From NCBI GenBank assembly GCA_013373515.1, contig JABXHR010000016.1, positions 20,000-83,999 on the forward strand: a DNA stretch of 64,000 nucleotides. The letters are read 5' to 3'. Made by a program: the position numbers and the translations under genes. Below are positions 18,408 to 45,758 of the stretch, one piece after another (position 1 is the stretch's first letter; the number at the start of each line of letters is the position of its first letter). The notes under the pieces were generated by a model. That model did not search any database, was not told where the DNA came from, and saw nothing but the letters and a program-made list of their open reading frames with translations. The DNA is from Gammaproteobacteria bacterium. GTDB lineage: Bacteria > Pseudomonadota > Gammaproteobacteria > JABXHR01.

Positions 18408-21799
<3,392 letters not shown>

Positions 21800-21810
21800 A
21801 TTGGTAAAAT

Positions 21811-23137: not shown

Positions 23138-24463
23138 TCACTCCTGCAAAATTCGCATAAGTGCTTGATAATCCTTCGAAAATCTCTCGTCCGTTTGAAG
23201 TAGTTCGTCAACCTTCTTAACCGCATGCATCACCGTTGTATGGTCACGGTCGCCAAATGCTTTGCCAATGTCATTCAAGCTGCTGTCGGTTAATTGTTTG
23301 GCCAATGCCATCGACATTTGTCTTGGACGCGCGATACGACGTGCACGCGACGCGCTGAGCAATTCTGTCATACTGAGTTTGAAAAATTCACAGGTATTGC
23401 GTTGTATATTGTCTACCGAGATCCTTCGATCCCGAGAGGCAAAAGTCTCGCGCAATGCACGCTTGGCAAGCTCAATAGTGATCGGCTGCTTTTGAAAATC
23501 TGCTTGCGCGATCACGCGGTTTAACGCCCCTTCGAGTTCGCGGACAGTCGAACCTCCGCGATCGGCTATCAATAGTGCGACATCGTCCGGTAACTGGTGC
23601 CCATTTCGTTCAGCCTTGGCATGAATGATTGCCACACAGACTTCAAGTTCCGGGCGTTCAATCTCGGCCACAAGCCCCCAAGCGAAACGAGAGCGCAGGC
23701 GCCCCTCTATACCTGTGACGTCCATTGGAAATTGGTCACAGGTCAGAACGATCTGTTTATTGGTGTCCAACAATGCATTGAACAGGTGAAAGAACTCTTC
23801 CTGGGTTCGATCTTTATTGGCAAAAAACTGAATATCATCGATTAACAGTGCATTCACATTTCTAAACGAGCGCTTGAACTCATCCATCGAGTTGCTGCGC
23901 AACGCAGCGACCATTCTTCGAAAATAATCCTCAGCCGACATACAAACCACATTGGCTTCGTGGTTGGCATCTTTGATTGCATTGCCTACGGCGTGCATCA
24001 AGTGCGTCTTGCCAACACTGTAAGGGCCAAAGATTACCAGAGGGTTGTAACGTACCCCAGGTTCTGATGCGGTTGCCATTGATGCGGCGCGAGCGAATTG
24101 ATTGGATTTCCCCTCGACGAAGGCATCAAAGGTGTAGTTTTTGATTAGCCCCGCCGAGGCAATCATCTGTTTGGGTTTCGCTGAGGTCGGATTTGGCACA
24201 GCTGACGCAGCTTTTTGCGGTCCACCTGTGGAATAAACGACCTTAAACGACTCAAGACCAGAAATTGCACGTGCTAGCTCGGCAATTCGGTCGCCAAACC
24301 GTGCCTGCAATTCTTGTTGCACGAATCGATTCGGTGCATATAGCGTCAAAGCAGTCTCAGAGAGGCTGTGTTGTAATGGATGAATATAGGTACTGACCAG
24401 CCCGGGATCGAATTCCGACTCTAAGCGACGAACACAATTGGCCCACAGCGGGTTGGACGACAC
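23138..24463 (-). CDS. dnaA: Chromosomal replication initiator DnaA
   Basis: AAA+ Walker A GPYSVGKTHL. C-terminal DNA-binding domain. 441 aa. Confidence 0.97.
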   Translation of the reverse strand: MSSNPLWANCVRRLESEFDPGLVSTYIHPLQHSLSETALTLYAPNRFVQQELQARFGDRIAELARAISGLESFKVVYSTGGPQKAASAVPNPTSAKPKQMIASAGLIKNYTFDAFVEGKSNQFARAASMATASEPGVRYNPLVIFGPYSVGKTHLMHAVGNAIKDANHEANVVCMSAEDYFRRMVAALRSNSMDEFKRSFRNVNALLIDDIQFFANKDRTQEEFFHLFNALLDTNKQIVLTCDQFPMDVTGIEGRLRSRFAWGLVAEIERPELEVCVAIIHAKAERNGHQLPDDVALLIADRGGSTVRELEGALNRVIAQADFQKQPITIELAKRALRETFASRDRRISVDNIQRNTCEFFKLSMTELLSASRARRIARPRQMSMALAKQLTDSSLNDIGKAFGDRDHTTVMHAVKKVDELLQTDERFSKDYQALMRILQE

Positions 24464-24603
24464 AGATTCTCCCCATCAAAACCGATCAACGACCCGCTAT
24501 CATACGAAGAATCGGTATAGTTATCCACAATAAAAGGAGTCAGCAGTTGACGTTCTAGGACTTTAATGCTAAATTTTCGCGTTCACTTATTGGAAGACAC
24601 GTT
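24464..24603. promoter_or_regulatory. Divergent dnaA/rpmH promoter region. Single perfect DnaA box at 24521-24529. Putative rpmH sigma70 promoter: -35 TTGACG 24547-24552, -10 TAAATT 24570-24575.
   Basis: TTATCCACA sits 58 nt upstream of the dnaA start. GATC at 24484-24487. TTGACG-N17-TAAATT lies about 30 nt upstream of the rpmH ATG. Confidence 0.45.
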
Positions 24604-24738
24604 ATGAAACGTACATTTCAACCTAGCGTTTTGAAGCGCAAGCGTTCACACGGCTTTCGTGCACGCATGGCAGATCGCCACGGCCGTGCAGTTCTGGCTC
24701 GTCGTCGCGCAAAAGGTCGTAAGCGCCTTTCAGCTTAA
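24604..24738 (+). CDS. rpmH: 50S ribosomal protein L34 (44 aa); not present in the ORF track
   Basis: Manual translation gives [44 protein letters not shown]. Confidence 0.92.
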
Positions 24739-24746
24739 TTTCAGGC

Positions 24747-25121
24747 GTGCTTGAATTCGTGGGTACGCGGCATTATACGTTTGAGCCTGAAAAACGGCTG
24801 CGTAAGCCCTCCGAATTTAAAATGGCCCTGACCTCAGGGCAGCGTGTACGACATCCTGTCATACATTTCGCACTCGATCACAACACCAATCAGCCACGCT
24901 TGGGACTTACTGTGCCCAAAAAAGTACTGCGACGAGCACATGATCGCAACCGAATCAAACGGTTGATACGGGAAAGCTTTCGCCACCATCAGCATAAACT
25001 GCCGCCAGTGAACATTGTGGCTATGGTACGATTCGGCATCGAAGAGCTCAGCAACCAAGAAATCTCGGAGATATTGGCCCATCAATGGCGACGGATCAAA
25101 CGGCAACACAACGCGCAATGA
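24747..25121 (+). CDS. rnpA: Ribonuclease P protein component
   Basis: RnpA motifs ...[29 protein letters not shown]... GTG start; exact start uncertain. Confidence 0.88.
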
Positions 25122-25336
25122 TTGGACTGATTAAGGTGTATCGCTACGGCATTTCACCCTTTTTGCCAGCTCGCTGTCGCTACATTCCAAGTTGCAGTGA
25201 ATATGCCCTTGATGCTGTTAAAATTCACGGTGCGATAATCGGCGGCAAATTAGCGGCCAAGCGGCTTTGCAGCTGTCATCCATGGGGTGGGCACGGCTAC
25301 GACCCAGTGCCTCCAAAACAAACAGAAACTAAATAG
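25118..25336 (+). CDS. yidD: Membrane protein insertion efficiency factor YidD
   Basis: [14 protein letters not shown]...[12 protein letters not shown]...[16 protein letters not shown] overlap with rnpA. Confidence 0.88.
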
Positions 25337-25348
25337 AGAACGGTTTAA

Positions 25349-26938
25349 ATGGAAAACCAACGCGTCTTTTTGTATACCGGCCTAGCCTTTTTGCTTTTCC
25401 TTGTATGGCAACAATGGCAAGTCGATTACGTTTTGCCAAAACCAGAGCCTGAAGCAATCCAAGTCGTCGAACAAGGGGTATCTGTCGATGGAACAGTCGG
25501 TAATACCGCGGCAACTGGCGACACCATCAGCGTATCAACGGACGTAATTTCTGCTGAGATTTCATTGAATGGTGGTGAAATCTCAAAACTCTCACTGGCA
25601 GATTATTCTGTTTCGCTTGAAAAGCAAGATGAGCAATTTGTTCTCTTAGATCGTTCGGCAGATCTATATAACGTTGCACAAAGTGGCCTTCAGGGCACCG
25701 GTGTTGGCTTGCCAGATCACCGCGCGACCTACAGTGCTGAGCAGACTAGCTATACCCTAGACGGCGATCAGCTTGTCGTACCAATGACATGGCAGCAAGA
25801 TGGCGTCACTGTCACCAAATCGCTGACCTTCACCAAAGGCAGTTATCAGGTTGAAGTGAATTACGCCATTGAAAGAGCGCCAGCGGGTTCGGAAGGACGT
25901 TATTACGCGCAGATTCAGCGCACTCAGGGCGAGTCGACCGGTGGGCTTGGTCAAGTCTACAGTTACACTGGCGGTGTTTATAGCTACAGCGAAGAGCGTT
26001 ACAACAAATACGACTTTGGCGACATGGCAGACAGTGACCTAAAGATGGACAACATCAAAGGTGGCTGGGTGGCGATGATTCAGCATTACTTTGCCGCTGC
26101 GGTTATTCCACCGCAAGATGATACTCATCGGTTCTATAGTACTACGGCCAATGAAGGGCGCATTTTTAGCCTCGGCATTCAGAGCGCAAAAGAAGCTGTT
26201 GGTGCTGACGGAACATTAACCCTAAGCCACAAGTATTACATAGGACCCAAAATCCAAGAAAAACTCGATGAAGCGGCGCCATTTTTACGCTTGACGGTTG
26301 ACTTTGGCTGGTTGTCCTTTGTAGCTGAAATATTGTTCTCGGTCTTGAAGTTCTTCCATCAATACGTGGGTAACTGGGGCTGGTCGATTATTTTGCTAAC
26401 ACTGCTAATTAAGCTGATTTTCTTCCCCTTGTCGAAGATGTCTTATACATCAATGGCAAAGATGAAACAGCTGACACCGAAGATCCAAGCCATCCGTGAG
26501 CAGTATTCCGACGATCAGGCAAAAATGGGCCAAGAGACCATGAACCTGTATCGCAAAGAGAAGGTCAATCCACTGGGTGGCTGTATTCCTATCTTGTTGC
26601 AGTTTCCGGTATTTATTGCCCTGTATTGGATGTTGGCCGAGTCGGTTGAGCTTCGCCAAGCGCCGTGGATTGGCTGGATTCAAGATCTTTCTATCAAGGA
26701 CCCTTGGTTCATCTTGCCTGTGATTTACATGGTGACGATGTTTATTCAGCAGCGTCTGAATCCACCGCCTGCAGATCCTATCCAGCAGAAGATTTTCCAG
26801 TGGATGCCAGTGATGTTCGGTGTGTTCTTTATGTTCTTCCCTGCAGGTCTGGTCTTGTACTGGGTGGTCAATAATACACTCACCATTGCACAGCAGTGGA
26901 CCATCATGCGCAACCTCGAGAAAAAAGGGCTGAAGTAG
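25349..26938 (+). CDS. yidC: Membrane protein insertase YidC
   Basis: N-terminal TM helix, large periplasmic domain, then a conserved C-terminal 5-TM core; 529 aa. Confidence 0.97.
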   Translation: MENQRVFLYTGLAFLLFLVWQQWQVDYVLPKPEPEAIQVVEQGVSVDGTVGNTAATGDTISVSTDVISAEISLNGGEISKLSLADYSVSLEKQDEQFVLLDRSADLYNVAQSGLQGTGVGLPDHRATYSAEQTSYTLDGDQLVVPMTWQQDGVTVTKSLTFTKGSYQVEVNYAIERAPAGSEGRYYAQIQRTQGESTGGLGQVYSYTGGVYSYSEERYNKYDFGDMADSDLKMDNIKGGWVAMIQHYFAAAVIPPQDDTHRFYSTTANEGRIFSLGIQSAKEAVGADGTLTLSHKYYIGPKIQEKLDEAAPFLRLTVDFGWLSFVAEILFSVLKFFHQYVGNWGWSIILLTLLIKLIFFPLSKMSYTSMAKMKQLTPKIQAIREQYSDDQAKMGQETMNLYRKEKVNPLGGCIPILLQFPVFIALYWMLAESVELRQAPWIGWIQDLSIKDPWFILPVIYMVTMFIQQRLNPPPADPIQQKIFQWMPVMFGVFFMFFPAGLVLYWVVNNTLTIAQQWTIMRNLEKKGLK

Positions 26939-32958: not shown

Positions 32959-34464
32959 GTGGATACCATTTCACTGTTGATGCAGGGCTTTGATGTCGCC
33001 CTGACCCCAACCAATTTAATGTTGGCGGTGGCGGGCTGTATTATCGGCACCATCGTCGGCGCATTGCCCGGTCTTGGGCCAAGTAATGGCGTGGCGCTGT
33101 TGATACCACTGGCCTTTAGTATGGGTTTGGATGCGACCGAGTCGTTGGTGTTGATGACCAGCGTGTATTACGGCGCGATGTATGGCGGTCGAATTTCCTC
33201 GATTTTGCTGAATGTGCCTGGCGATGAACCGGCGTTAATGACCACGCTCGACGGTTACCCTATGGCCAAGCAGGGTCGGGCAGGTGATGCGCTTGTACTG
33301 TCAGGCGTGGCCTCGTTTGTGGGTGCTTTCTTGGCAACGATTGGCTTGATGTTTCTGGCCCCGACACTTGCACAAGTGGCTTATTTGTTCGGGCCGGCAG
33401 AGTACTTTGCCCTTTACTTATTGGCATTCTCGACGTTGGGCGGTTTGGCCTCAAAAAGCCAAGCCAAAGCGGTGTTGGCTTCTTGTATTGGTCTTGGAAT
33501 TGCGATGATTGGCCTCGACAATTTTAGCGGCATGCCAAGGCTAACCGGGGGCAGCATGCACCTGATGGATGGCGTGGATTTTCTGGTGGCCATTGTGGGG
33601 TTATTTGCCATCACCGAAGTCTTTGTGTTTATCGAGAGCCATGGCAAGGAAAGTTCAATCGGCGTCACTCTTAACAAGATCACCATTCCTATTAAGGAAA
33701 TCCTCGGTAGCACGGTGACCATGTTGCGCTCGACGGTGATCGGGTTCATCGCAGGCATTTTGCCTGGCGCGGGAGCCTCATTAGGTAGCTTCTTAGCCTA
33801 TTCGGCAGAGAAGTCGATTGCAAAGGATAAAGAGACCTTCGGTACTGGTAACCCCAAAGGTGTCGCTGCGCCTGAAGCGGGTAACAATGCGGCCGCTGGT
33901 GGCGCTCTGGTACCCATGCTGACCTTGGGTGTGCCGGGCTCCGGGACAACGGCGGTGTTGTTGGCACTGTTGATGACGCTCAATATCACACCGGGTCCCT
34001 TGCTGTTTGAAGAGCGCCCTGAAGTGGTTTGGGGTCTGATAGCGGCGTTGTTGATTGCCAACGTAATGTTGCTTGTGCTCAACGTACCGCTGGTGAAGTT
34101 GTTCGTCAAAATCTTGATGGTACCGCCTCGGGTGCTCCTTCCAGGTGTGACAATGGTGTCATTTGTTGGCATTTATTCGCTGTCTGGGTCGTCTTTTGAT
34201 TTGCTGCTGATGATTGGATTCGGTGTGTTGGGTTATGTGCTACGTAAGCTCGATATTCCGACAGTGCCAATCATTTTGGGCATTTTGCTCGGCAACCATA
34301 TGGAGGACAGTCTTCGCCGCGCGATGGTGGTCTCCGGTGGTGAGTGGCAGTACTTGTTCTCATCATGGATCGCGATTGTGTTGTGGATTGCTGCCATGGT
34401 GGGCTTCACCGCGCCGTTGTTTTTGCGCAATTTGATCAAGAAGCCAACCGCGCATGACCACTAA
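32959..34464 (+). CDS. tctA: Tripartite tricarboxylate transporter large permease TctA
   Basis: 501 aa polytopic protein with TctA-like sequence (...GALPGLGPSNGVALLIPL...). Confidence 0.9.
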   Translation: MDTISLLMQGFDVALTPTNLMLAVAGCIIGTIVGALPGLGPSNGVALLIPLAFSMGLDATESLVLMTSVYYGAMYGGRISSILLNVPGDEPALMTTLDGYPMAKQGRAGDALVLSGVASFVGAFLATIGLMFLAPTLAQVAYLFGPAEYFALYLLAFSTLGGLASKSQAKAVLASCIGLGIAMIGLDNFSGMPRLTGGSMHLMDGVDFLVAIVGLFAITEVFVFIESHGKESSIGVTLNKITIPIKEILGSTVTMLRSTVIGFIAGILPGAGASLGSFLAYSAEKSIAKDKETFGTGNPKGVAAPEAGNNAAAGGALVPMLTLGVPGSGTTAVLLALLMTLNITPGPLLFEERPEVVWGLIAALLIANVMLLVLNVPLVKLFVKILMVPPRVLLPGVTMVSFVGIYSLSGSSFDLLLMIGFGVLGYVLRKLDIPTVPIILGILLGNHMEDSLRRAMVVSGGEWQYLFSSWIAIVLWIAAMVGFTAPLFLRNLIKKPTAHDH

Positions 34465-35794
34465 AGTTCTTGTGCCCTCGGGTGTTCTGGGGTTGGGTTT
34501 CGATCGGGAGGCGTTGGCCCTTGGTGTTGCCGAAGGCGCAGATATCATTGCCATCGATGGCGGGTCCACAGACAGTGGGCCATTCTATTTGGGCACCGCG
34601 CAGTCGAAGTATGCTCGTGCCACCTGCAAAGCAGAATGGCGTGATCTTATGTTGGCTAGAGCGCAATTGGATGTGCCTTTGGTGATTGGCTCTGCGGGTA
34701 CCTGTGGCGCGGATTCAATGGTTGATTGGATGTTGGCGCTGACCCAGGAGCTTGCCGTCGAGCTTGGGCAGTCCCCCAAAATCGCGCTGCTTTACAGTGA
34801 ACAATCTCAGACCACGCTGCAATCGCGCTGGTCTCAGATCTCCCCATTAGCTGCCGCGCCTGCGTTTGAGCAGCAAGACATCGATACACTGTCGCACTGC
34901 GTCGCACTGGCAGGCGTCGAACAAATCCAAGCCGCCTTGGACACCGGAGCCGATATCATCATCGCAGGACGCTGTACTGATACTGCGGTGATTGCCGCCT
35001 TGCCGATTTCCCGAGGTGAGCATGTGGCCGCCGCTTGGCACGGCGGCAAAATTGCCGAATGTGGCGCACTGTGCACCAGCCATCCGGTGACCGGTTGCGT
35101 GATGTTGGAAGTCGACCAAACGGGCTTTACCATTCGTCCGCTTCACCCAGATGCACAATGCACACCGCATAGCGTCAGTGCCCACATGCTCTACGAAAAC
35201 GCCGATCCCGTGGTGCTCTATGAGCCAGGCGGTCATTTGGATGTGAGCACCGCCCAGTATCGAGCACTAGACGAGCGTTCGGTTCGGGTTGAAGGCAGTA
35301 CATGGATCAAAGCTGAGCGCTATACCGTGAAACTTGAGGCTGCTCGGATTAGAGGTTACCAGTACAGTCTGCTGGCTTTGGTGCGCGATCCGCACTATGT
35401 GAAGCATATCCGACAATGGTCGGCGCACTTACAAGGCTTTTTGCACCGTTTGATTGAAGACACCATGGGCGAGCTCGATTATGACCTACAGCTGCGGTTA
35501 ATTGGCGTCGATGCCACATTGGGGGAATTGGAGTTTGTCGAGTCCCATCCAGTCGAAGTCGGCGTGCTCGGGCTGATCACTGCGTCGAGTGACGATCAAG
35601 CGCAAGAAATTGCCAAGCTCTGCAACCCGCATTTTCTACATTTCTCGCTGACCGACGACGAACCCTCGGTGACCTTTGCGTTTCCCTATTCACCTGCCGA
35701 AACTTCGCGCGGCGCGCAGTATGAGTTTGTGTTCAATCACGTGATGGAACTTATCGAACCCATGGATGGCTTTCGACTGAAGGTGGTCTCATGA
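34454..35794 (+). CDS. DUF1446 (acyclic terpene utilisation AtuA-like) family protein
   Basis: About 446 aa. Overlaps tctA by 11 nt. Followed by the canonical DUF4387 partner. Confidence 0.65.
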   Translation: MTTKVLVPSGVLGLGFDREALALGVAEGADIIAIDGGSTDSGPFYLGTAQSKYARATCKAEWRDLMLARAQLDVPLVIGSAGTCGADSMVDWMLALTQELAVELGQSPKIALLYSEQSQTTLQSRWSQISPLAAAPAFEQQDIDTLSHCVALAGVEQIQAALDTGADIIIAGRCTDTAVIAALPISRGEHVAAAWHGGKIAECGALCTSHPVTGCVMLEVDQTGFTIRPLHPDAQCTPHSVSAHMLYENADPVVLYEPGGHLDVSTAQYRALDERSVRVEGSTWIKAERYTVKLEAARIRGYQYSLLALVRDPHYVKHIRQWSAHLQGFLHRLIEDTMGELDYDLQLRLIGVDATLGELEFVESHPVEVGVLGLITASSDDQAQEIAKLCNPHFLHFSLTDDEPSVTFAFPYSPAETSRGAQYEFVFNHVMELIEPMDGFRLKVVS

Positions 35795-36102
35795 AGACCA
35801 TTGGTGACTATGCGAAATTGATTCGCAGCAAGAATGCTGGCCCATTTTGGCTGAGTGTCGATATATTTGCGGAGGCACAGTATGCAGTCTTGTGTAATCG
35901 GCTCGATAATCAAAAAATTGCCGAGGCGTTTAAGGTGCCGCCGGATTCACTGAAGCGCTTCGATCTCGATGATCTGCGGGTCATAAAACTAAGCCTGCCA
36001 AGGCCAGTTGTTCAGGGTGCTACCGCAGATCGAGATCAGCATGGTGCGCAGTATGCTCACCTAGTGTCAGCTTTAGGCCTTTTGCCAGATGGTGACAGAT
36101 AG
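35791..36102 (+). CDS. DUF4387 small protein (AtuA partner)
   Basis: 103 aa with 4-nt overlap to the DUF1446 gene. MKTIGDYAKLIRSKNAGPFWLSVDIF... matches the DUF4387 pattern. Confidence 0.6.
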   Translation: MKTIGDYAKLIRSKNAGPFWLSVDIFAEAQYAVLCNRLDNQKIAEAFKVPPDSLKRFDLDDLRVIKLSLPRPVVQGATADRDQHGAQYAHLVSALGLLPDGDR

Positions 36103-36879
36103 CGGTCGGCCATCTGGCAATGTATGGACTAGATGCTCATTGATCAGCCCGTTGCCCAGCGTTAGCAGCACTTCATTTGGCTCCAATAGGAATTTTGGAT
36201 TTCTTGGGCGGCATGGGCCGACGTGCTGCGCACCTTGCATAAAGGTTTGGTAGAGCAGGATTCCTTTGGGTTTTAGTAAGCTCGGCAATGTCGGTAGCAA
36301 GGGGCGATGGAGGTAGCGCGCGACGTGAATCAGATCGAATTGTTCACGCCATTCGCTTGGCCAAGCAAAGTTGGGGGTTTCTAAGTTCATACGCTTGGCG
36401 TCAATGGTTACGCCACAGCGCGCACTGCTTCGTTGGAGGCGCGAAATAGAATCCTCGGAGTAGTCAACCGCGGTCATTTGCCAGCCGGCGCTGGCGAGCG
36501 CCAAGCTGTCTCTGCCAGCACCGCAGGCGATGTCTAAGGCGCGTCCCAAATTGATTTGAAGCTCGCTTTGCCGGTGGTCTATCCAGTCTTGAATCAGCGT
36601 CGAGGGCTGCCAGTGAAAAATGGGCTGCTTGCAGACCCAATTTGCATCAGATATGGGCGGTATTGCGTTGTCGATTTGATAGGGCTTGTCGGCAAAGTAG
36701 TGCTTGGCCTCTGCCAGCTGAGCGTCGGTGCCAATCAGCTGAAGTGCAAAATGCGTGCTCGGCAATTCATGGCTTAGTTCGAACAGCTGCCTGGCCGGGA
36801 TGTTTGCGGCATTGGGGTGATGTGATGCGAGGTAGTCGCTTTCGTCACGCAGGTCGATTATGACAGTGTTTGCAGCCAA
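36073..36879 (-). CDS. Fusion protein: N-terminal rhodanese-homology domain (no catalytic Cys) plus a TehB-like SAM-dependent methyltransferase
   Basis: C-terminal region aligns with E. coli TehB (ALDIACGAGRDSLALASAGWQMTAVDYSEDSI vs [32 protein letters not shown]). N-terminus VIIDLRDESDY...ANIP is rhodanese-like, but the active-site loop IGTDAQ lacks Cys. Confidence 0.7.
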   Translation of the reverse strand: MAANTVIIDLRDESDYLASHHPNAANIPARQLFELSHELPSTHFALQLIGTDAQLAEAKHYFADKPYQIDNAIPPISDANWVCKQPIFHWQPSTLIQDWIDHRQSELQINLGRALDIACGAGRDSLALASAGWQMTAVDYSEDSISRLQRSSARCGVTIDAKRMNLETPNFAWPSEWREQFDLIHVARYLHRPLLPTLPSLLKPKGILLYQTFMQGAQHVGPCRPRNPKFLLEPNEVLLTLGNGLINEHLVHTLPDGRPLSVTIWQKA

Positions 36880-37652
36880 TTTTTTAGCTCCAGCGTGTGA
36901 TGGGGGCGATGGATGTCGTTGACTTGGATTCCCAGTTGGGCCAGTGAGTCAGCGCTGGGCTGTGCTTGGCAATCGGCCAGCGCGCCGAGCAATGATTCGC
37001 CTTCTGCGAAGAGACCGCTAGGTTCGTTGATGTAATCAATGATGTGCTGGGGTTCTAGCTCTGGATGGTATTGCGTCCCCCAAAACTTGATCTTGCCTTT
37101 CTCGTAGACGAAAGCCTGCACGGGAGAGTGCGCATTAGTGGCAATTAGTGTGGCCTCACTTGGCAATGTCACGACATGGTCTCGATGCACACAAAGTGCC
37201 GCAAAGTTGGTTGTTTTTCCACGCATCATGGGGTGATCGCGACCATCTACCGTGAGCGCGATCTCGCGCGCAAAGCCAATTTCTAGACCGTTGGGATTGG
37301 GGCCATTTTGGCCGCCCAGCACTTGAGCGGCCAGCTGCATGCCATTGCATGAGCCGAAACAAGGTAAGCCCGCATCAAAGCATTGCGCCATTGCGGCTCG
37401 AAGTGGCGCGGCTTCTGGATCGTCAACGCCCCAACTGACACCAGCACCGGTAAACACAGCGCCTTGGTACTGGCTGTAGTCTGTTTCTTGCACAGAAAAG
37501 GTGTGTTGGTAGGGCTCGATAATGTCGAATTGCACACGTTGGTCTAGCGTTTGTAAGCAATCTCCGTATTGTTCGGCCGCAGTCTTTTTTCCGCTGGATC
37601 GAGCCATGTTGACCCGCGTGGGGCTATTGCTTTCGATGATCAGTAGCTTCAT
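36858..37652 (-). CDS. Class I glutamine amidotransferase domain protein (stand-alone GATase1)
   Basis: Catalytic Cys in LPCFGSCNGMQL and a His-Glu dyad in GTQYHPE. Start at MKLLIIESN. Overlaps the downstream MTase gene by about 22 nt. Confidence 0.75.
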   Translation of the reverse strand: MKLLIIESNSPTRVNMARSSGKKTAAEQYGDCLQTLDQRVQFDIIEPYQHTFSVQETDYSQYQGAVFTGAGVSWGVDDPEAAPLRAAMAQCFDAGLPCFGSCNGMQLAAQVLGGQNGPNPNGLEIGFAREIALTVDGRDHPMMRGKTTNFAALCVHRDHVVTLPSEATLIATNAHSPVQAFVYEKGKIKFWGTQYHPELEPQHIIDYINEPSGLFAEGESLLGALADCQAQPSADSLAQLGIQVNDIHRPHHTLELKNWLQTLS

Positions 37653-37724
37653 GGATTGTTGGCCTTTTGATGATGCTGGCGGTACTTTTGGCATTCTAAC
37701 GACTCTTTTTATTTGGAGGTAACA

Positions 37725-38456
37725 ATGAAGCTGGCTTTGATCAGCGGTGGCTCGCGTGGTTTGGGGCATGCCGCCTGTGAGCAATTAATTGGGGATGGTT
37801 TTGAAGTCATCGAATTCTCTCGAACCGCACCGCATGACTATTCGGTTCGGTGTGATTTTGCTGATCCAACTAGCGTGGGCCAAACGATCACAGAGACATT
37901 GCTGTCGCTTGATCTGTCGGATCTCGAGACGCTCTGGGTGATCAACAATGCGGGTGTGCTAACGCCAATTGGTCCGACGGCAAAATTCGAGACAGCAGAG
38001 TTGATTGACAATATGTCAGTCAATATCGCCAGTGCAGTGGTGTTTATGAGCGAGGTGATGCGCCAGATTCAAAATCTTCCTGCAAGGAAGGTTATCGCCA
38101 ATATCAGCTCGGGTGCTGCAACGTCGCCTTACGCGGGATGGTCGCTCTATTGCATGGCCAAAGCAGGCATTGAGCAATTTGTTCGCTCGGTGGCTGAGGA
38201 GCAAAAAAACAGTGTGACCCCAGTCACATTACTGAACTTCATACCCGGCGTCATCGATACCGAAATGCAACGGGAAATTCGCTTAAACTCGAAAGAAAAC
38301 TTTCCTGAAGTTCAGAAATTTATTAATCGCCATCAGCAAGGATTATTGCGATCAAGTAAGCAAGTCGCTGCTTCTCTGATCCTCGCCATGGCGGATCAAT
38401 CGCTTATTTCTGGCCAAACTGTTTCTGTTGACTCATATCTAACTGTTGACTGTTAA
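37725..38456 (+). CDS. Short-chain dehydrogenase/reductase (SDR) family oxidoreductase
   Basis: N-terminal Rossmann motif LISGGSRGLG, NNAG motif, catalytic YxxxK (YCMAK). Confidence 0.8.
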   Translation: MKLALISGGSRGLGHAACEQLIGDGFEVIEFSRTAPHDYSVRCDFADPTSVGQTITETLLSLDLSDLETLWVINNAGVLTPIGPTAKFETAELIDNMSVNIASAVVFMSEVMRQIQNLPARKVIANISSGAATSPYAGWSLYCMAKAGIEQFVRSVAEEQKNSVTPVTLLNFIPGVIDTEMQREIRLNSKENFPEVQKFINRHQQGLLRSSKQVAASLILAMADQSLISGQTVSVDSYLTVDC

Positions 38457-38533
38457 CCAGTTCACAAAACATAGATCGATGACTTGGGGTATAGTCTAAG
38501 TTGTTGATCTAAAAAGATTTTGTGAGGGTTTGC

Positions 38534-41500
38534 ATGATGCGAAATTTGACACATTCAAGCTTTCTCGTCGGATTATTGACGAGCTTGCTAGTGGTTTCTT
38601 GTGGTGGTGGCGGCGGATCAGATTCCGGAACGACAGACACTACAGATGGGGGCACACCGTCTGCACCAAACAGCGAGACACAAACCGTCAGCGGTAAAGT
38701 TATCGATGGCTACATTGAGAAGGCGCTGGTTTGTTTTGATGTGAACGCAAACCTTAAGTGTGACTCGGATGAGCCCCAGGCCTACACCGATGCATCGGGC
38801 AGCTATTCCATAGAAGACGCACCATCAGATTACGTCGGCAAATACCCCATCGTCGCTGAGATCATTAGCGGTGTTTCGATCGACCGTGATCGCAGTGAAC
38901 AACCTATTGAGCTTGACGGCAATCAAACCTCACTGAGTTTGATCACACCTGCCGGTGAAACCATTGTCACGCCATTGACCACGCTGGTTGCGCTCACTAA
39001 AACGGCTGAGCAAAACATGGCCGATGTCGAGGCCTTGATCAAAGCAGAGCTTCAACTTGATGAGAACATCTCGCTATTTGAAGACTTCATTGCGCCAGAA
39101 GGACATGACGAATCGTCTGATGAGTATTGGGCTTATCAAGAGGCACGTGGTCTTGCACAAGCGGCGTTCGATGCTGTCAAAGCCACGGTTGGCGGTGCGA
39201 TTGAGGATATTTCGTCAATCGAATCGCTGCAAGGCAAGGAAAGTGAAGTGCTGCGTGTGGCAATGAAAACTGCCACCAAAGCCGCGATTGTCGCTGTTAA
39301 GAATACGCGTGAAGTTTATAAAGACGTGGTGACTCAGGCGCGTAAGCAGGCTAAGGAAGCCAGTTTGGAGCAGGACATCGGGAAGTTGATGGCGCAAAAC
39401 AAGGCCATTCAATCGAAAGTAAGCGATGAGATCGATGTTCAGGTCAAGCAAATTGCCAAGCTCTCCAAGGTAGCGCTGGAAGAAATTGAGATTGCTGAGA
39501 ATGCTGAGCTACTCGACACAGTGGCCGAATTGAAAAAAGGCGGCTATTTCTTCGAGCTATCTGATACAGAGGACAATGGTTATTTCTACACAGAAGAAAT
39601 GCTGATGAACATCAAGGCTAATGACGATGGTTCATTGGACCTTCGAGGAGCTCGGTTGAGCGATATCGGGGATGCCGGCTCGCTAGACATCATGCGTTCG
39701 GTTAGCGATGGTGCAGATAGTTATAGTTCAAATGCGGCATTTAAACTCGCCAACAACCGATGGATCGGGCCAAACGATACTTCGAGTAGTGCAGGCTATA
39801 TGTGGCAAGATCTTGGAGATGGTCGAGTGGCCATCAAATTTGACCATGAAACAACGGTTGTGGCTGCAGGTGGCTACAGTGTACAAAGCTGGGAGGAGTT
39901 GCTCAAAACTGTAAGAGTCTATTCAGATCGTTCTGAAGCGACCTACATCATCGAAGGCGTGTTGGAAGGCCTGCGGGAAACGCCGCTGTTCGATGCACCA
40001 CCGGCAGACCAGCGCATTGTATTGGTCAGCGGGATTGATGATGCTGGATGGGGTGAGCTGTACGAAAGTGACATTACCGTCAATAAAGCCCTTAAGTTCT
40101 CCGGCACGCTTAGCACCGGCGACACCTTTGTCGGGCGCGTCAACCTAGAAAGCCAAAATTACAATTATCTAAATTGCCAGGACATCACCATTGTTCAGAC
40201 AGATGGCACCAGTGGGCAAGCCTCGCTGAACTGCGAGGTCTACACGCCAGATTGGCAGACGGTGGAAGTCGCAGCAGATGTACTGATGCATGCCGACGGC
40301 ATGGGACTTTCGGTGCAACACGATGGTGAGACCTACTACGGTGGGTTTAAACGTCATGAGGGCGTGTTATACGCGGTCTATGGCGGCAACAATGAATATC
40401 AAGCTTGGATCTCTCAAGCGCAGCCTAGCTCGCTGGAAGACTTAATCAACGATGTCAACACGGCACCCAAATTCGCGCCGATTGACAGTAATGTCACCGA
40501 GCCCTATGTAGATCTATGGGGTGAGCGTTTTTATCGCTATGCCGGAGAGATTGTTTGGATTCCGTCCGACACTTGGGACGACGGCAATGCGACATTTGAA
40601 AGCACATGCTCGCTTAGCGCAGAGGCTTTGAGCTGCACGACCACGCAAGTGACGGACAACGACTTTGAGTTAGCGTTGGGTGACTGGGGCTACAAAGAGA
40701 CTCGCAAGAACTCAATCGTGGTCACGCTGAACGATAAGGGCAATGAATGGTCCCCCTACGCATTTGAGAAATCGACAGAGATCTTAGGTATGGATGCTTA
40801 CAAGGAGTACCGCAGCGATTGGGATGACAACAAGCAGCGCTATGTGGAATCGGTTCGACGCGTTGAATCCGAGGGCTGGTCTGACAGCTACGGCTACTCA
40901 GAGGATGAAGTGGCAGCTTATGTGGCTAACTTCGATGGCGGGCAAAGCGTTGGCAACATTGAAGAGATCATCAACCCGACTGCACCAGCGACCATGCCAA
41001 CGGATCGTAAGACTTTGGACTCTACGCCTGGATTACGTGTGAATGGGGAATACCTCTACAAGGACGATACGGGCCAGATCTATTCGCTGTACATCGACTG
41101 GCAGCGTGAGTTCGATTGGGATGAGGGTTTGTTTAAGGACCTTGAAGTCGTCAAATCGACCGCGTGTGAAATTGTTGCTGACGCCTTGGTGTGCTCGATC
41201 ACTGACCGTTGGGGCAATCAAAATGTCATGACGTATTTTGTCGAAAACGCTACGGTTATGGTCAGCTCGTTGCACTTAAATTACAACGATGCTTTGGCGT
41301 TGGTGAGCAAAAGCGCACCAACCTCAATCGATGACTTGATGGCATCGGTGACTGCCGAGGGCGAGCCAACTGCGATGATTTCGGCCTACTATCAAAACGG
41401 TGACTGGTACAACAATATGTCACTGGCCATTGAAAACATGCAGGCTGGCGACACCTCGGGTACTGCGTTTGCAGGCTGGGGCACGCAGATGTTGGATGAT

Positions 41501-41782
41501 TGGTCCAAGGCGGAAGACTGGGGCTTTGACAATATCGGTTGGTCGGTTAGAACCATCGGCGGCAGCCAAGCATTGATCTGGGATCAGCCCTTCTGCGGCA
41601 CTGAGGACGAGGCATCGGATGATGATGCATCGGACTACTGTAGCTATCAAATCATCGCCGAGCACGATGGTGCACTTTATGCTGGCTACTATGGCGTGGA
41701 TAAGAGAGAGTTCATCATTCCAATGCTGTCCAAAGCACAAGTACAACAAGTGCTCGACGCCTACCTGTCATATGCGCCTTAG
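38534..41782 (+). CDS. Large (1083 aa) acidic lipoprotein of unknown function
   Basis: Signal peptide with lipobox MMRNLTHSSFLVGLLTSLLVVSC followed by a Gly/Ser/Thr/Asp linker. Rich in Asp/Glu/Trp/Tyr. I recognised no known domain. Confidence 0.6.
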   Translation: MMRNLTHSSFLVGLLTSLLVVSCGGGGGSDSGTTDTTDGGTPSAPNSETQTVSGKVIDGYIEKALVCFDVNANLKCDSDEPQAYTDASGSYSIEDAPSDYVGKYPIVAEIISGVSIDRDRSEQPIELDGNQTSLSLITPAGETIVTPLTTLVALTKTAEQNMADVEALIKAELQLDENISLFEDFIAPEGHDESSDEYWAYQEARGLAQAAFDAVKATVGGAIEDISSIESLQGKESEVLRVAMKTATKAAIVAVKNTREVYKDVVTQARKQAKEASLEQDIGKLMAQNKAIQSKVSDEIDVQVKQIAKLSKVALEEIEIAENAELLDTVAELKKGGYFFELSDTEDNGYFYTEEMLMNIKANDDGSLDLRGARLSDIGDAGSLDIMRSVSDGADSYSSNAAFKLANNRWIGPNDTSSSAGYMWQDLGDGRVAIKFDHETTVVAAGGYSVQSWEELLKTVRVYSDRSEATYIIEGVLEGLRETPLFDAPPADQRIVLVSGIDDAGWGELYESDITVNKALKFSGTLSTGDTFVGRVNLESQNYNYLNCQDITIVQTDGTSGQASLNCEVYTPDWQTVEVAADVLMHADGMGLSVQHDGETYYGGFKRHEGVLYAVYGGNNEYQAWISQAQPSSLEDLINDVNTAPKFAPIDSNVTEPYVDLWGERFYRYAGEIVWIPSDTWDDGNATFESTCSLSAEALSCTTTQVTDNDFELALGDWGYKETRKNSIVVTLNDKGNEWSPYAFEKSTEILGMDAYKEYRSDWDDNKQRYVESVRRVESEGWSDSYGYSEDEVAAYVANFDGGQSVGNIEEIINPTAPATMPTDRKTLDSTPGLRVNGEYLYKDDTGQIYSLYIDWQREFDWDEGLFKDLEVVKSTACEIVADALVCSITDRWGNQNVMTYFVENATVMVSSLHLNYNDALALVSKSAPTSIDDLMASVTAEGEPTAMISAYYQNGDWYNNMSLAIENMQAGDTSGTAFAGWGTQMLDDWSKAEDWGFDNIGWSVRTIGGSQALIWDQPFCGTEDEASDDDASDYCSYQIIAEHDGALYAGYYGVDKREFIIPMLSKAQVQQVLDAYLSYAP

Positions 41783-41795
41783 TTAGATAGCGTAG

Positions 41796-42374
41796 TTATA
41801 TTGCAATCAGCAACGCACTGGCGGCCAATAGGACCGCCATTGTGTTTTTAAATCGACGCCACGCGGTGTCTGATTGCAGCAATTTGGCCAACAATGCGCC
41901 AAATACACTCCAAAACAAACACACCATCAGATTGATTGAGCTGAAGCTTAATCCCAACACCAATGCTGCAAGGCCTGGCGATAGATGCGCCGTAAAGCTG
42001 GCACTTGCCGCGAGTGCGACGGCCCAAACCTTTGGGTTGATCCATTGAAACAGCACTGCTTCGGAAAACCGCATTGGACAGTCGGTCTCAGCCGCGGCCG
42101 CAGGAGGTGCTGCGCGATAGAGTCCGTAGGCCATCCTTAGAATCCATGCCGCACAGCCCACTTTCAAAATCACAATTAGCTCTGGGGTTTGTTGAAGCAA
42201 TGCGCCAAGCCCCAAACCAGTTGCTGCGCTGGTAATGCCAACCCCGACGACGACCCCAGCCAAATGTGGCAAGGTCGGTGCAAATCCAAATCGCGCACCG
42301 GAAGACGTCAGCATGATGACATTTGGGCCAGGCGTGAACAGCCCAACGAAAATAAAAAGCCAAAGTGATTGCAT
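41796..42374 (-). CDS. LysE/RhtB family amino-acid exporter
   Basis: MQSLWLFIFVGLFTPGPNVIML...; about 190 aa with 6 TM helices. Confidence 0.8.
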   Translation of the reverse strand: MQSLWLFIFVGLFTPGPNVIMLTSSGARFGFAPTLPHLAGVVVGVGITSAATGLGLGALLQQTPELIVILKVGCAAWILRMAYGLYRAAPPAAAAETDCPMRFSEAVLFQWINPKVWAVALAASASFTAHLSPGLAALVLGLSFSSINLMVCLFWSVFGALLAKLLQSDTAWRRFKNTMAVLLAASALLIAI

Positions 42375-42466
42375 GGTTCTCCAAAGCGTCAACACTGGGT
42401 TTCGAGTCACTGAGCACGCACTTTACATTTACAATCGCAGTACGTCACAACTATTGCGCATTGTTT

Positions 42467-43072
42467 ATGTCATCTTCTGTTTTGCTTTTGTACTTTCATG
42501 CGGCGGCTGAGTTTTCTAAAGCCAATCACGGCCTGATTTCGGCGCTTGGGCACCAAGAGCATCTTTTGGTCAGAGACATGTATGCAGAGTACCCGCGCTT
42601 TTCGATTGATATCGACAAAGAGCAAAGTCTTCTGGCTACGCACGACACCATCGTGCTGCAATTTCCGATGTTCTGGTATTCGTCTCCAGCGCTGCTCAAA
42701 GAATGGCAAGACTTGGTTTTAGAGTATGGCTTCGCGTATGGCGATGGTGGCACTGCTTTGCAAGGTAAACGTTTGCAGCTGGTGGTGACCACCGGTTCTC
42801 CCGCGGAAGCTTACACGGCAGAGGGTGAGAAGGGCTACACATTGCGCGAGTTTCTGCGTCCATTTGAGGCCATGGCCAAACTCTGCCATTTGGACTACCA
42901 CGCACCATTGGCGATGCATGGGGCTAGAGATGCTGCAGACAATGGTCAGCAAGCGGTGTGGAATCAGGCTTATCAGAAACTCATTGCAGCGCTGATAGCG
43001 GGGCGCTATCCACAGTCGCTCGCCAAGCGAACCGATGTGGTGACGCCAGAACAACTGCTGGAGGTGCTCTAA
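42467..43072 (+). CDS. kefG: Glutathione-regulated K+ efflux system ancillary protein KefG/KefF-like (flavodoxin-fold NAD(P)H quinone oxidoreductase)
   Basis: Strong similarity to E. coli KefG (LLLYFHAA..., YAEYPRFSIDIDKEQSLLATHDTIVLQFPMFWYSSPALLKEWQDLVL). 1-nt overlap with kefB (TAATG). Confidence 0.8.
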   Translation: MSSSVLLLYFHAAAEFSKANHGLISALGHQEHLLVRDMYAEYPRFSIDIDKEQSLLATHDTIVLQFPMFWYSSPALLKEWQDLVLEYGFAYGDGGTALQGKRLQLVVTTGSPAEAYTAEGEKGYTLREFLRPFEAMAKLCHLDYHAPLAMHGARDAADNGQQAVWNQAYQKLIAALIAGRYPQSLAKRTDVVTPEQLLEVL

Positions 43073-44934
43073 TGTTGGCAGATGCATTTGTCTACTTGAT
43101 TGCCGCGGTCGTGATGGTACCGCTGGCTTCCCGTTTTGGCTTGGGTTCGGTGCTTGGCTACCTAGTCGCGGGTGTGTTGATTGGGCCGGTATTGGGGCTG
43201 GTGGGCACCGAAACCCAAGACATTCAACATTTCGCCGAGTTCGGGGTGGTGATGATGTTGTTTTTGGTTGGGCTAGAGCTGCAACCGAAGATGCTATGGC
43301 AAATGCGTCATCGATTACTCGGGCTCGGTGGCTTGCAGGTGACAGTCACTGCCGCTGCGTTTTTTGCCATTGGGGCGTTGGGCTTTGATTTGGCATGGCA
43401 AAGTGCGCTCGCCATTGGTTTGATGTTGGCGCTGTCGTCGACGGCGATTGTTTTGCAGTCGCTAAACGAGAAGGGACAAATGAAATCGGCAGCGGGCGAG
43501 AGCAGCTTCTCTGTTTTGCTGTTCCAAGACATCGCCGTGATCCCAATCTTGGCGTTGATTCCGCTCCTAGCGTTACCTGAGCTCAGCAATTTGCACGGCG
43601 CTACCGACGACGGACATGGCGGCGGTAGCTTTGTCGATCATCTATCGCCGATATTGCGCACGCTGGTGACTTTGGGTGCGGTGGCCGCGGTGGTGGTCGC
43701 CGGGCGTTTTGGGGTTAATCCGCTTCTGCATTACATTGCAAAATCCAAATTGCGCGAGATGTTTACCGCGACCGCATTGATGTTGGTGATCGGCATTGCC
43801 CTATTGATGACCATGGTGGGTTTATCGCCAGCACTGGGGACATTCGTGGCCGGCGTTGTGCTTGCCGACAGTGAGTTCCGGCACGAGCTAGAGTCGGATA
43901 TCGACCCCTTTAAAGGCCTATTGCTTGGGCTGTTTTTTATTACGGTCGGCTGCGGAATCGACTTTGCTGTTTTGGGTGAAAACGTCAGTCTGGTGTTGGC
44001 GATCACTGTGGGACTGATCGCCGTGAAAGCGGCGGTAATTTATGGTTTGGGCACCCTATTCAAGGTGAATTTGCCCGATCGCTGGTTGTTTGCGTTGGGT
44101 TTGGCGCAAGCAGGCGAATTCGCCTTTGTATTGCTTGGGTTTACGGTGCAAAACGCAGTGATTACTGCTGAAATGTCGAAGATCCTCAATTTGGTGGTGG
44201 CGTTATCGATGTTCCTCACGCCAGCGCTGTTTATCTTTTATGACCGCGTGATCGTGGCGCGCGCAGTGCAGGCGGAAGCACGCGAGCAGGACACGATAGA
44301 CGAAACGGGGTCGGTGATTATTGCTGGGCAGGGGCGCTTTGGTCAGATCATCAATCGCCTGATGATGGGCAACGGATTTAGCACGGTGGTCATTGATCAC
44401 CGCTCGGAACAGGTCGAAATGCTAAAGAAGTTTGGGGTAAAAACCTTTTTTGGCGATGCTTCGAGACCAGATCTCCTGCATGCAGCTGGGTTACATTCGG
44501 CCAAAATGCTGATTGTGGCCATCGACGACATGCATGCGGCGATCGAAATGATTAAACATGCTCGTCGCGAGCGGCCAGATATTCATATTGTCGCCCGCGC
44601 CAGTGATCGTTCAGATGTGTATCGCATGTATTACGCAGGCGCCAATGACATCATCCGCGAAACCTTCGATGCTTCTGTGCGAGCGGGTCGCAGTGCGCTG
44701 GAGGCACTCGGTGTGCATCCCCATGCCGCTGAACGGCGTATCAATGCATTCAGGGAAATTGATCGTGACATGATGTTGTTGATGGCGCAGCACTGGAACG
44801 ACGACATTCCGCCCTATGAAAACGAGGCCTATGTCGCTGAGGGTAGGCGTCAGCTCAAGATCATGGAAGACGCACTAGCCGGTAAACGAACCATCTTCCA
44901 GGAGAAAGCAGAGCGGGGTTGGTCTGCACGTTAG
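43072..44934 (+). CDS. kefB: Glutathione-regulated potassium-efflux system protein KefB/KefC (CPA2 antiporter + RCK/KTN domain)
   Basis: MLADAFVYLIAAVVMVPLASRFGLGSVLGYLVAGVLIGP... plus a C-terminal KTN NAD-binding domain (IIAGQGRFGQ). Confidence 0.9.
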   Translation: MLADAFVYLIAAVVMVPLASRFGLGSVLGYLVAGVLIGPVLGLVGTETQDIQHFAEFGVVMMLFLVGLELQPKMLWQMRHRLLGLGGLQVTVTAAAFFAIGALGFDLAWQSALAIGLMLALSSTAIVLQSLNEKGQMKSAAGESSFSVLLFQDIAVIPILALIPLLALPELSNLHGATDDGHGGGSFVDHLSPILRTLVTLGAVAAVVVAGRFGVNPLLHYIAKSKLREMFTATALMLVIGIALLMTMVGLSPALGTFVAGVVLADSEFRHELESDIDPFKGLLLGLFFITVGCGIDFAVLGENVSLVLAITVGLIAVKAAVIYGLGTLFKVNLPDRWLFALGLAQAGEFAFVLLGFTVQNAVITAEMSKILNLVVALSMFLTPALFIFYDRVIVARAVQAEAREQDTIDETGSVIIAGQGRFGQIINRLMMGNGFSTVVIDHRSEQVEMLKKFGVKTFFGDASRPDLLHAAGLHSAKMLIVAIDDMHAAIEMIKHARRERPDIHIVARASDRSDVYRMYYAGANDIIRETFDASVRAGRSALEALGVHPHAAERRINAFREIDRDMMLLMAQHWNDDIPPYENEAYVAEGRRQLKIMEDALAGKRTIFQEKAERGWSAR

Positions 44935-45758
44935 GCGCTGGGCAAATGGCGCTCTAAAAACGCCACAATATCTGTCATGACCTGCTCACGGTCCAAATCG
45001 TTGAGCAGCTCGTGATAGCCTCCGGGATATTGATTCAGGGTGACGGCAGAATGTTGTCTGGCAAAGCGAATGGCGCCGCCTGGCGAGACGATTTTGTCTG
45101 CATCTCCCTGGATGAGTAGAGTCGGGCAGTTTAGGGTCATGGACGTATCGCGGACGGCTTTCATCGCCGCCATAATCTCCATACCGCTGCGAGCGGTCAT
45201 GCCAAGGTTGGACACCAATGGATCATTTTGACAATGGCGATACAGCGCTGTATCTCTGGTGACAGGTTGTGAGGAGCGATACCCTGCGCGTAGCGTCGGC
45301 CAGCGTTCACTCACCCAAGTGGCCAGTATTAGCTGCCATGTTGCGATTTTCGGGGCTTTAAGCGCCGGTGCACTCAGCAGCGCGATATTGGGGCTTAGGT
45401 TGCCACTGAGCAACAGCTTGCTACAAATCAGTCCTCCCAAACTATGGCCAAATAGTATCCAAGGTAACTCCGCATTTTGTTGATTGAGCTTCGCTTGAAC
45501 GCGCTCGACTGCGTCCTCTAGCAATGCCATTCTTTCAATATGGCCATATTGTCCACTGGGATGGCAGTCACTGCGTCCATGGTTGGGCAAGTCAAACGCC
45601 CAGACCTCGATGCCCATCGCACAGAGTTGCGTCATCAGTGGCTGATAACGCAGCGCATGTTCGTTGTGTCCATGCACGATCAGGGCTTTGGCGCGGGGGT
45701 CGTGTGGGCATAGACGGTAGGTCGCCAATGGCCCCAACCTAGAATATTCCAATGACAT
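44931..45758 (-). CDS. Alpha/beta hydrolase (lysophospholipase / monoacylglycerol lipase-like)
   Basis: HGHNEH...GRSD, nucleophile elbow GHSLGG; 275 aa. Confidence 0.8.
   Translation of the reverse strand: MSLEYSRLGPLATYRLCPHDPRAKALIVHGHNEHALRYQPLMTQLCAMGIEVWAFDLPNHGRSDCHPSGQYGHIERMALLEDAVERVQAKLNQQNAELPWILFGHSLGGLICSKLLLSGNLSPNIALLSAPALKAPKIATWQLILATWVSERWPTLRAGYRSSQPVTRDTALYRHCQNDPLVSNLGMTARSGMEIMAAMKAVRDTSMTLNCPTLLIQGDADKIVSPGGAIRFARQHSAVTLNQYPGGYHELLNDLDREQVMTDIVAFLERHLPSA

Follow-up and report, generated by a model that had tools for sequence, protein, structure and literature searches.

What kind of protein is encoded by a 3.2-kb gene whose product begins with a clear lipoprotein signal and yields nothing above threshold in the curated domain libraries? 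The question is raised by a gene on the forward strand of contig JABXHR010000016.1, from a metagenome-assembled genome (MAG) of a marine gammaproteobacterium (assembly GCA_013373515.1). The window analysed here is a stretch of 64,000 nucleotides (nt) of this contig (positions 20,000 to 83,999); nucleotide positions are those of the window and residue numbers (aa) those of the protein. Our results show that the protein is a modular lipoprotein, probably of the outer membrane, in which an uncatalogued but recurrent presentation module is joined to a strictly orphan cargo of 750 aa. The architectural part of this description is far more secure than any statement about function. A first-pass annotation, made from the letters alone, had described a 1083-aa acidic lipoprotein. 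The acidic lipoprotein stands, but its length is 1082 aa, since the count of 1083 had included the stop codon.

Signal peptide, linker and overall composition

The N-terminus MMRNLTHSSFLVGLLTSLLVVSC, directly followed by GGGGGSDSGTTDTTDGGTPSAP, complies with the PROSITE-type lipobox rule, with Arg at position 3, no charge between positions -10 and -5, and the lipobox Cys at position 23. Rules of the PS51257 type call for K/R within the first 7 residues, an uncharged hydrophobic stretch and a lipobox of the form [LIVMFWSTAG](2)-[LIVMFYSTAGCQ]-[AGS]-C, with the Cys at positions 15-35. Cys23 is invariant across the family alignments A1 and A2 (conservation of the module discussed below was read from these two and from A4, the widest alignment). 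It is followed by Gly-Gly at +2 and +3, and hence lacks the Asp(+2) that signals retention in the inner membrane. According to the Lol rule of Escherichia coli, a residue other than Asp at +2 leads to transfer to the outer membrane. The signal peptide, lipobox and G/S/T/D-rich linker of the first-pass annotation were borne out by the lipobox rule, by Cys23 and by the composition of the linker (Table 1).

The protein as a whole is very acidic (181 D+E against 75 K+R, isoelectric point ~4.1) and rich in aromatic residues (Y 4.8%, W 2.1%). Besides Cys23, its cysteines form exactly five short-range pairs (67/76, 548/567, 692/701, 878/887 and 1021/1036), and the paired Cys noted earlier are therefore real. 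Such pairs, together with the acidic and aromatic-rich composition, would fit an oxidising, non-cytoplasmic compartment.

The N-terminal module and the helical stalk

A small beta-sandwich had been suspected close to the N-terminus, and structure prediction supports it. The AlphaFold2 model of aa 44-195 reached a mean predicted local distance difference test score (pLDDT) of 93.3 and a predicted template modelling score (pTM) of 0.86. Structural neighbours of this model are the transthyretin-like (TTL) domain of carboxypeptidase D (5aq0), the N-terminal extension (NTE) of SusC (9hfj), a cellulosomal X-module (5g5d) and CnaB-type pilin domains, and further the Ig-like domains of RTX adhesins, the sandwich domains of fervidolysin and the non-heme domain of PgcA. 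Foldseek returned the same fold class, without significance. At the sequence level, the Pfam model CarboxypepD_reg (PF13620) scored 15.2 bits against the module, which is below its gathering cutoff of 32.3, and it matched 8 of 39 module-family members at E <= 0.1 (best 5e-4). Family members gave sub-threshold Pfam matches to Big_1 and SdrD_B as well, and a search of the PDB sequences with the module-family profile found no match. Judged by the model, the module probably belongs to the prealbumin/Ig-like sandwich class, as a divergent member that has not been catalogued. Domains of this class usually act as spacer or presentation domains.

The module contains a 12-residue acidic loop that resembles an EF-hand (Table 1). 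Residues D69, N71, N73, D77 and E80 have the spacing of EF-hand-type ligands at positions 1, 3, 5, 9 and 12. In alignments A1 and A2, D69 and N71 never vary and D77 and E80 hardly do; in the wider A4, D69 and E80 are conserved in at least 90% of the sequences. In the subfamily of the target protein the loop is spanned by the pair Cys67-Cys76. From this pattern, the loop is presumed to be a Ca2+ site.

Downstream of the module, the full-length AlphaFold2 model shows an alpha-helical stalk (Table 1). It is ~30% identical to the helical region of the ~800-aa relatives P0003, P0004, P0006, P0007 and P0010. A coiled-coil check of the stalk found no clean or consistent heptad register.

One handle, many cargoes

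Searching 5.8 billion protein clusters brought up the identical MAG protein and 22 others whose match to the target is confined to residues ~15-190; a subgroup of ~800-aa proteins matches further, up to residue ~330. All 22 of these first relatives have an N-terminal lipobox Cys, in the context CGGG in 20 of them, CGSGG in P0015 and CSDNN in P0023, and a low-complexity linker comes next. Module relatives are 30-43% identical to the target across aa 15-190, with phmmer E-values of 1e-14 to 2e-27 within the hit set and 5e-19 to 1e-5 database-wide. A second phmmer domain between the target and P0018 (5 bits) was dismissed as noise. Profile searches widened the module family to 47 proteins, most of which are lipobox lipoproteins. 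The conserved columns of the module (V56, D58, G59, A64, D69, N71, G89, D117, P147 and T149) and the near-invariant ones (D77, E80, L148 and T150) are all present in the target.

The target thus has in common with this family the lipobox Cys, the low-complexity linker, the sandwich with its D-x-N-x-N-x-x-(C)-D-x-x-E loop and the helix start TPLTTLV. In contrast, everything beyond the module differs, and no member has the 750-aa C-terminal region of the target. The non-module parts, or cargo, sort into at least 7 clusters unrelated to one another, besides a number of singletons such as the target. Domains found beside the module are PGAP1/alpha-beta-hydrolase lipases, phosphatidylethanolamine-binding protein (PEBP), subtilase S8, PPC, thrombospondin type 3 (TSP3), PKD, RTX, cadherin-like, LRR, pectate-lyase-type beta-helix and Lcl-C domains. 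Judged by their annotation, these partners are typical of secreted or surface proteins. In several giant RTX, cadherin-like, PKD and subtilase proteins, the module is internal instead of following a lipobox (Table 1). Its hosts are other marine and freshwater bacteria. Family members are, for example, the hypothetical protein ACPGUD_02250 of a Parashewanella MAG (P0023), a TSP3-repeat protein of Vibrio sp. MMG022 (P0029), BIT28_04420 of Photobacterium proteolyticum (P0048) and the ~800-aa proteins P0003-P0007 from metagenomes. The three module-family genes that were checked for a conserved partner are each solitary amid housekeeping genes.

Pfam and NCBIfam contain no model for this domain, which we name after its motifs VIDGY and TPLTTLV, and the family has no characterised member. 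By these comparisons, the VIDGY/TPLTTLV domain is a recurrent, uncatalogued domain family. The earlier statement that the protein has no recognisable domains accordingly holds for the curated libraries but only in part biologically, since its N-terminal ~150 aa form a recurrent domain of predicted transthyretin-like fold that is followed by a stalk.

A side observation concerns nine lipoproteins of ~800 aa (P0003-P0007, P0010, P0013, P0017 and P0019), which share the module, the stalk and a common C-terminal region of ~450 aa. No Pfam domain was found in the latter region, so that the handle would carry a second family of uncharacterised cargo.

The orphan C-terminal region

For the region beyond the stalk, aa 336-1082, a word-seeded search of the 5.8 billion clusters and a full HMMER pass over 1.84 billion representatives of ~15 billion proteins both returned the same MAG protein as their sole match. 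DNA-level scans of JGI metagenome contigs and IMG/VR viral contigs with this region gave nothing, and hhalign comparisons with the cargo of every module-family cluster revealed no similarity (P >= 0.058). The window holds no paralogue of the target and no other lipobox ORF (open reading frame) of note. The full protein gave nothing above threshold against Pfam, NCBIfam and PDB sequences (E up to 10) or against PHROGs and PADLOC (E up to 0.1). Matches to DUF848, Tail_tube, bZIP_2, invert_tail (on the signal peptide) and Cas85f (on the helical stalk) were rejected as chance library matches. These library searches did not bring up the finding that the first-pass annotation had named as speaking against it, namely a characterised family with clear homology to most of the protein. 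At the level of sequence comparison, aa 336-1082 is a strict orphan.

This region contains 16.7% D+E, 6.2% K+R, 11.8% F+W+Y and 20% aliphatic residues, and it lies on the folded/unfolded boundary of the charge-hydropathy plot. This composition resembles that of extracellular proteins that fold, not that of disordered ones. The richness in Asp, Glu, Trp and Tyr that had been ascribed to some 900 aa is genuine, yet it extends over ~750 aa (336-1082), since residues 196-335 are alpha-helical. In the full-length AlphaFold2 model, most of aa 336-1082 has pLDDT < 50 and is drawn as beta-hairpins with occasional helices; Foldseek matches to this part all had E > 0.1 and are not meaningful.

By eye, some elements recur within the region, namely Cys-x8-Cys hairpins (STCSLSAEALSC, STACEIVADALVC) and helices of the type S-x-E/D-D-L-x-x-V. 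Two of its segments show a weak likeness (Table 1), and no other pair of segments stood out statistically. Their pairwise Smith-Waterman score of 50 (z = 4.1) was reached by 2 of 300 shuffles, and is not significant when corrected for 10 pairs. An hhalign self-comparison for internal repeats was not significant either (P >= 0.045). A tandem-domain build of the C-terminal region would be plausible.

Evidence that the gene is real, and where it starts

The forward strand is one uninterrupted ORF from 38522 to 41782, and translation from the ATG at 38534 gives the product of 1082 aa. The coding frame has no stops, against 28-90 in the other five frames across the same 3.2 kb. The G+C contents at the three codon positions (GC1/2/3 = 0.55/0.41/0.56) are similar from end to end of the gene. 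Relative synonymous codon usage (RSCU) correlates with that of the other window genes at r = 0.82, a value as high as that of the housekeeping genes there. Because the frame is open, GC1/2/3 is steady and the RSCU agrees, the gene is native coding DNA and a chance ORF is ruled out.

GenBank lists the same protein as NVK29651.1 (HWE20_01515, from the MAG 'Gammaproteobacteria bacterium'; P0001 in our set), with a TTG at residue 15 as its start (window 38534-38578). That start leaves only 8 residues ahead of the lipobox Cys, so that most of the signal peptide is lost and the lipoprotein nature of the protein is hidden. An independent gene call from a Logan assembly (P0049, run SRR11434631) uses the 1082-aa start. 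The NCBI MAG and Logan calls agree at 99.9% across 1068 aa, and the protein occurs in one sample only.

The G+C content drops to 0.48-0.50 at window 38000-39500, from the 3' end of the upstream short-chain dehydrogenase/reductase (SDR) gene through the first (5') third of the target; the flanks have 0.52-0.56. This dip does not point to recent transfer, because the target uses codons in the way that is typical of this genome.

Table 1. Features of the lipoprotein gene and its product, with the places of internal copies of the module in related proteins (residue numbers only).
Feature	Window position	Strand	Description
Shine-Dalgarno-like GAGG	38524..38527	+	6-nt spacer to ATG 38534; read directly in the sequence
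Lipoprotein gene	38534..41782	+	ATG start through stop codon
Lipoprotein signal peptide, aa 1-22, and lipobox	38534..38602	+	lipobox L-V-V-S-C with Cys23; PROSITE-type lipobox pattern
Flexible linker, aa 24-47	38603..38674	+	Gly/Ser/Thr/Asp/Pro; without aromatics or aliphatics; disordered side of charge-hydropathy plot; pLDDT 52-58
N-terminal module, aa 48-190	38675..39103	+	predicted transthyretin/carboxypeptidase-regulatory-like beta-sandwich, then two helices; motifs VIDGY, Cys67-Cys76, TPLTTLV
EF-hand-like 12-residue acidic loop	38738..38773	+	D69-V-N-A-N-L-K-C76-D-S-D-E80; pattern; family consensus D-x-N-x-N-G-x-x-D-x-x-E
Alpha-helical stalk, aa 196-335	39119..39538	+	helices 196-227 and 236-335; AlphaFold2 full-length secondary structure, pLDDT 56-90
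Orphan region, aa 336-1082	39539..41779	+	four short-range Cys pairs 548/567, 692/701, 878/887, 1021/1036; no relatives in searches
Segment aa 662-704	40517..40645	+	GERFYRYAGEIVWIPSDTWDDG...STCSLSAEALSCTTT; weak likeness to aa 837-890
Segment aa 837-890	41042..41203	+	GEYLYKDDTGQIYSLYIDWQREFDWDEG...STACEIVADALVCSIT; possible duplicate of aa 662-704
Stop codon	41780..41782	+	convergent LysE-family gene ends 13 nt downstream, at 41796
Internal module copies in relatives			P0027 aa 112-156 and 579-690; P0038 669-792; P0041 214-327; P0037 203-329
Internal module copies in relatives (continued)			P0047 179-296; P0046 131-247; P0034 134-258

Genomic context and sampling of the lineage

The gene lies in an ordinary chromosomal region, ~14 kb from dnaA. 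The SDR gene is located upstream on the same strand and ends 77 nt before the target; a promoter and terminator scan found no promoter-like site, and no terminator-like one inside this gap, so that the transcription unit of its own given in the first-pass annotation is only putative. Downstream follows the convergent gene for a LysE-family exporter, with KefF and KefC genes beyond it. GATase, methyltransferase, DUF4387, AtuA-like and TctA genes are located further upstream. The ten flanking genes (32959 to 45758) gave no match to DUF560 (Slam).

The KefC neighbour shows how well relatives of this genome have been sequenced. Its best homologue among 185,579 species genomes is only 64% identical (a Granulosicoccaceae MAG), and none of the 80 loci retrieved around KefC homologues encodes a relative of the target. 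Given these two results and the single sample, the lineage is sparsely sampled, which is enough to explain the orphan status in part. MAGs from poorly sampled lineages commonly contain orphan surface proteins.

Several further features of the window were noted. The closest KefC homologues (56-64% identity) come in part from Gammaproteobacteria (Granulosicoccaceae, Woeseiaceae) and in part from many Alphaproteobacteria. At 42365-44934, a KefF-like flavodoxin-fold gene precedes the gene for the KefC-type K+/H+ antiporter. The listed ORFs of this pair overlap by ~115 nt, which is probably due to a KefC ORF prolonged upstream as far as a GTG; in the Logan call the two genes (201 aa and 620 aa) abut. 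The TctA gene (large subunit of a tripartite tricarboxylate transporter) is co-directional with the AtuA-like and DUF4387 genes at 32959-36102, and the three may form a small uptake and catabolic unit. An origin-proximal cluster extends from 18408 to 26938, with gyrB, recF, dnaN and dnaA on the reverse strand (18408-24463) and rpmH (24604-24738), rnpA (24747-25121), yidD (25085-25336) and yidC (25349-26938) on the forward strand. Perfect DnaA boxes (TTATCCACA) at 23123 and 24521 flank dnaA, and the number of boxes in the whole window is not above chance.

What the protein may do

A coherent picture can be proposed from the architecture. Cys23 would be the acylation site of a Sec/lipobox signal, with a flexible tether of ~25 aa next to it, and the Gly residues at +2 and +3 would direct the lipoprotein through the Lol pathway to the outer membrane. 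The 'handle' would then consist of the transthyretin-like sandwich with its disulfide-stapled, EF-hand-like loop and two helices, and would be continued by the helical stalk of ~140 aa. Handle and stalk would keep the C-terminal region off the membrane, most likely at the cell surface. Surface placement is proposed because the same handle bears extracellular-type domains in other bacteria. The orphan region itself may be a lineage-specific, probably non-catalytic ectodomain for binding or adhesion; candidate ligands are a polysaccharide, a cation or mineral, or the surface of a host or particle, and binding would probably be stabilised by Ca2+. Fast evolution of surface proteins and the lack of a sequenced close relative might together account for its orphan status. 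The suggestion of the first-pass annotation that large orphan lipoproteins are often surface-exposed enzymes or binding proteins likewise seems to fit the extracellular-type partners of the module. Taken as a whole, the reading of an outer-membrane lipoprotein whose shared anchor and stalk present a lineage-specific, probably non-catalytic binding ectodomain is tentative, and we regard it as possible rather than probable.

Several points weigh against this reading. Surface exposure is a proposal, and Lol-sorted lipoproteins face the periplasm by default. No dedicated exporter (Slam/DUF560 or a type II secretion system, T2SS) adjoins the gene, and the three module-family members examined have no conserved neighbours. 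Ca2+ binding is put forward from a sequence pattern. The model of the C-terminal region is of low confidence (pLDDT < 50), the signal of internal repeats is weak, and the protein is known from a single sample. Furthermore, a new enzyme need not show any of the simple motifs.

The last point leads to an alternative explanation, in which the orphan region would be an enzyme of a new kind (possible types are a lyase or hydrolase of polysaccharides, an esterase and a peptidase) that is displayed on the surface or released from it, with the module as its anchor. Several module relatives indeed carry catalytic cargo (the PGAP1/alpha-beta-hydrolase lipases and subtilase S8), and 750 acidic, aromatic-rich residues would suit a carbohydrate-active enzyme. 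There is also one GxSxG motif in the target, GQSVG at aa 803. However, ~0.6 such motifs per protein are expected by chance (estimated from composition), and this one lies outside any predicted beta-strand/helix elbow. The protein has 8 His in total and no HExxH motif, no catalytic family matched even at E up to 10, and hhalign found no likeness of the C-terminal region to the lipase and subtilase cargo clusters (P >= 0.5). The lack of HExxH, the chance-level GxSxG and the absence of likeness to lipase cargo would all speak for a non-catalytic ectodomain, and we consider an enzyme unlikely.

Equally doubtful, in our judgement, is that the protein is an outer-membrane lipoprotein that faces the periplasm and has a structural or envelope role, for example as a spacer or as a cation-buffering acidic protein. 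Such an orientation would agree with the default just mentioned and with the lack of a surface-export partner gene near the target or the three family members, and the periplasm forms disulfides as well. Yet the partners of the module are typical extracellular domains (RTX, cadherin-like, PKD, TSP3, subtilase, lipase), the periplasm offers little room for a 750-aa domain on top of a helical stalk of more than 100 residues, and conserved envelope components are not normally orphans of one genome. Finally, the C-terminal 750 codons might be non-functional, as an assembly chimera, a decaying gene or newborn sequence attached to a genuine lipoprotein N-terminus. The lack of relatives anywhere searched, the low-confidence model and the single sample would be in line with this idea, but the frame is open for the whole 3.2 kb, codon usage and GC1/2/3 match the genome over the entire length, and the two gene calls are nearly identical. 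Moreover, the composition is that of a folded protein (20% aliphatic, 12% aromatic), and four Cys pairs at such regular places would hardly be expected in the absence of selection. We therefore deem non-function highly improbable.

Significance

The orphan status and the module with its shuffled cargo are real and worth recording. If the module is a general anchoring or presentation device, it represents a new domain family that deserves a Pfam entry and a candidate tool for surface display. It would then also hint at how some lipoproteins of Gram-negative bacteria, lacking Slam or T2SS partners, get to the surface or extend from it. A bolder version holds that the VIDGY/TPLTTLV sandwich, in some proteins with the stalk, is an undescribed portable display handle that suffices to anchor varied cargo and expose it on Gram-negative cells and that defines a new class of targeting module for surface lipoproteins, and that the 750-aa cargo belongs to a new fold or family and binds or catalyses in a new way; to this version we give little credence. 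The C-terminal 750 aa are long, clearly coding and without relatives in ~15 billion proteins, and determining their structure would be a reasonable aim. For a marine gammaproteobacterium of an under-sampled lineage, a large acidic protein at the cell surface may be a means of attaching to particles or hosts.

Comparison with known systems

A good parallel in function is VolA (VCA0863) of Vibrio cholerae, a surface-exposed lipoprotein lysophospholipase of ~81-83 kDa on gels that is active outside the cell (PMC3656444). Its defining features are pfam12262 (Lipase_bact_N) and a catalytic GxSxG, and the VolA gene is co-transcribed with a FadL gene (PMC3656444). The argument for outer-membrane sorting from a non-Asp residue at +2 has also been applied to VolA (PMC3656444). 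VolA and the target are both large lipoproteins from marine gammaproteobacteria, neither has Asp at +2, and lipase domains occur in some module relatives of the target. Unlike VolA, the target has no lipase fold and no FadL neighbour, and PF12262 is absent from the target and its relatives. Kinship with VolA was therefore rejected, as the target gave no match to PF12262 or any hydrolase at E up to 10, is not part of a FadL operon and lacks a lipase fold. VolA is best taken as a functional analogy, not as a family assignment.

Surface lipoproteins of the Slam-dependent type (TbpB, HpuA), which are marked by a neighbouring gene for the Slam (DUF560) translocator and an 8-stranded barrel domain at the C-terminus, and those of the T2SS type are parallels that neither the neighbours nor the domains of the target support. 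PgcA, an extracellular lipoprotein cytochrome of Geobacter sulfurreducens, resembles the module in its non-heme domain (PDB 9i0e). This likeness (13% identity) is that of a generic sandwich fold; the cargo of PgcA consists of heme domains, and the module-family profile has no sequence match to PgcA. The module differs from the CarboxypepD_reg and transthyretin-like domains as well; two features set the module family apart, namely its pair of C-terminal helices and its disulfide-stapled acidic loop.

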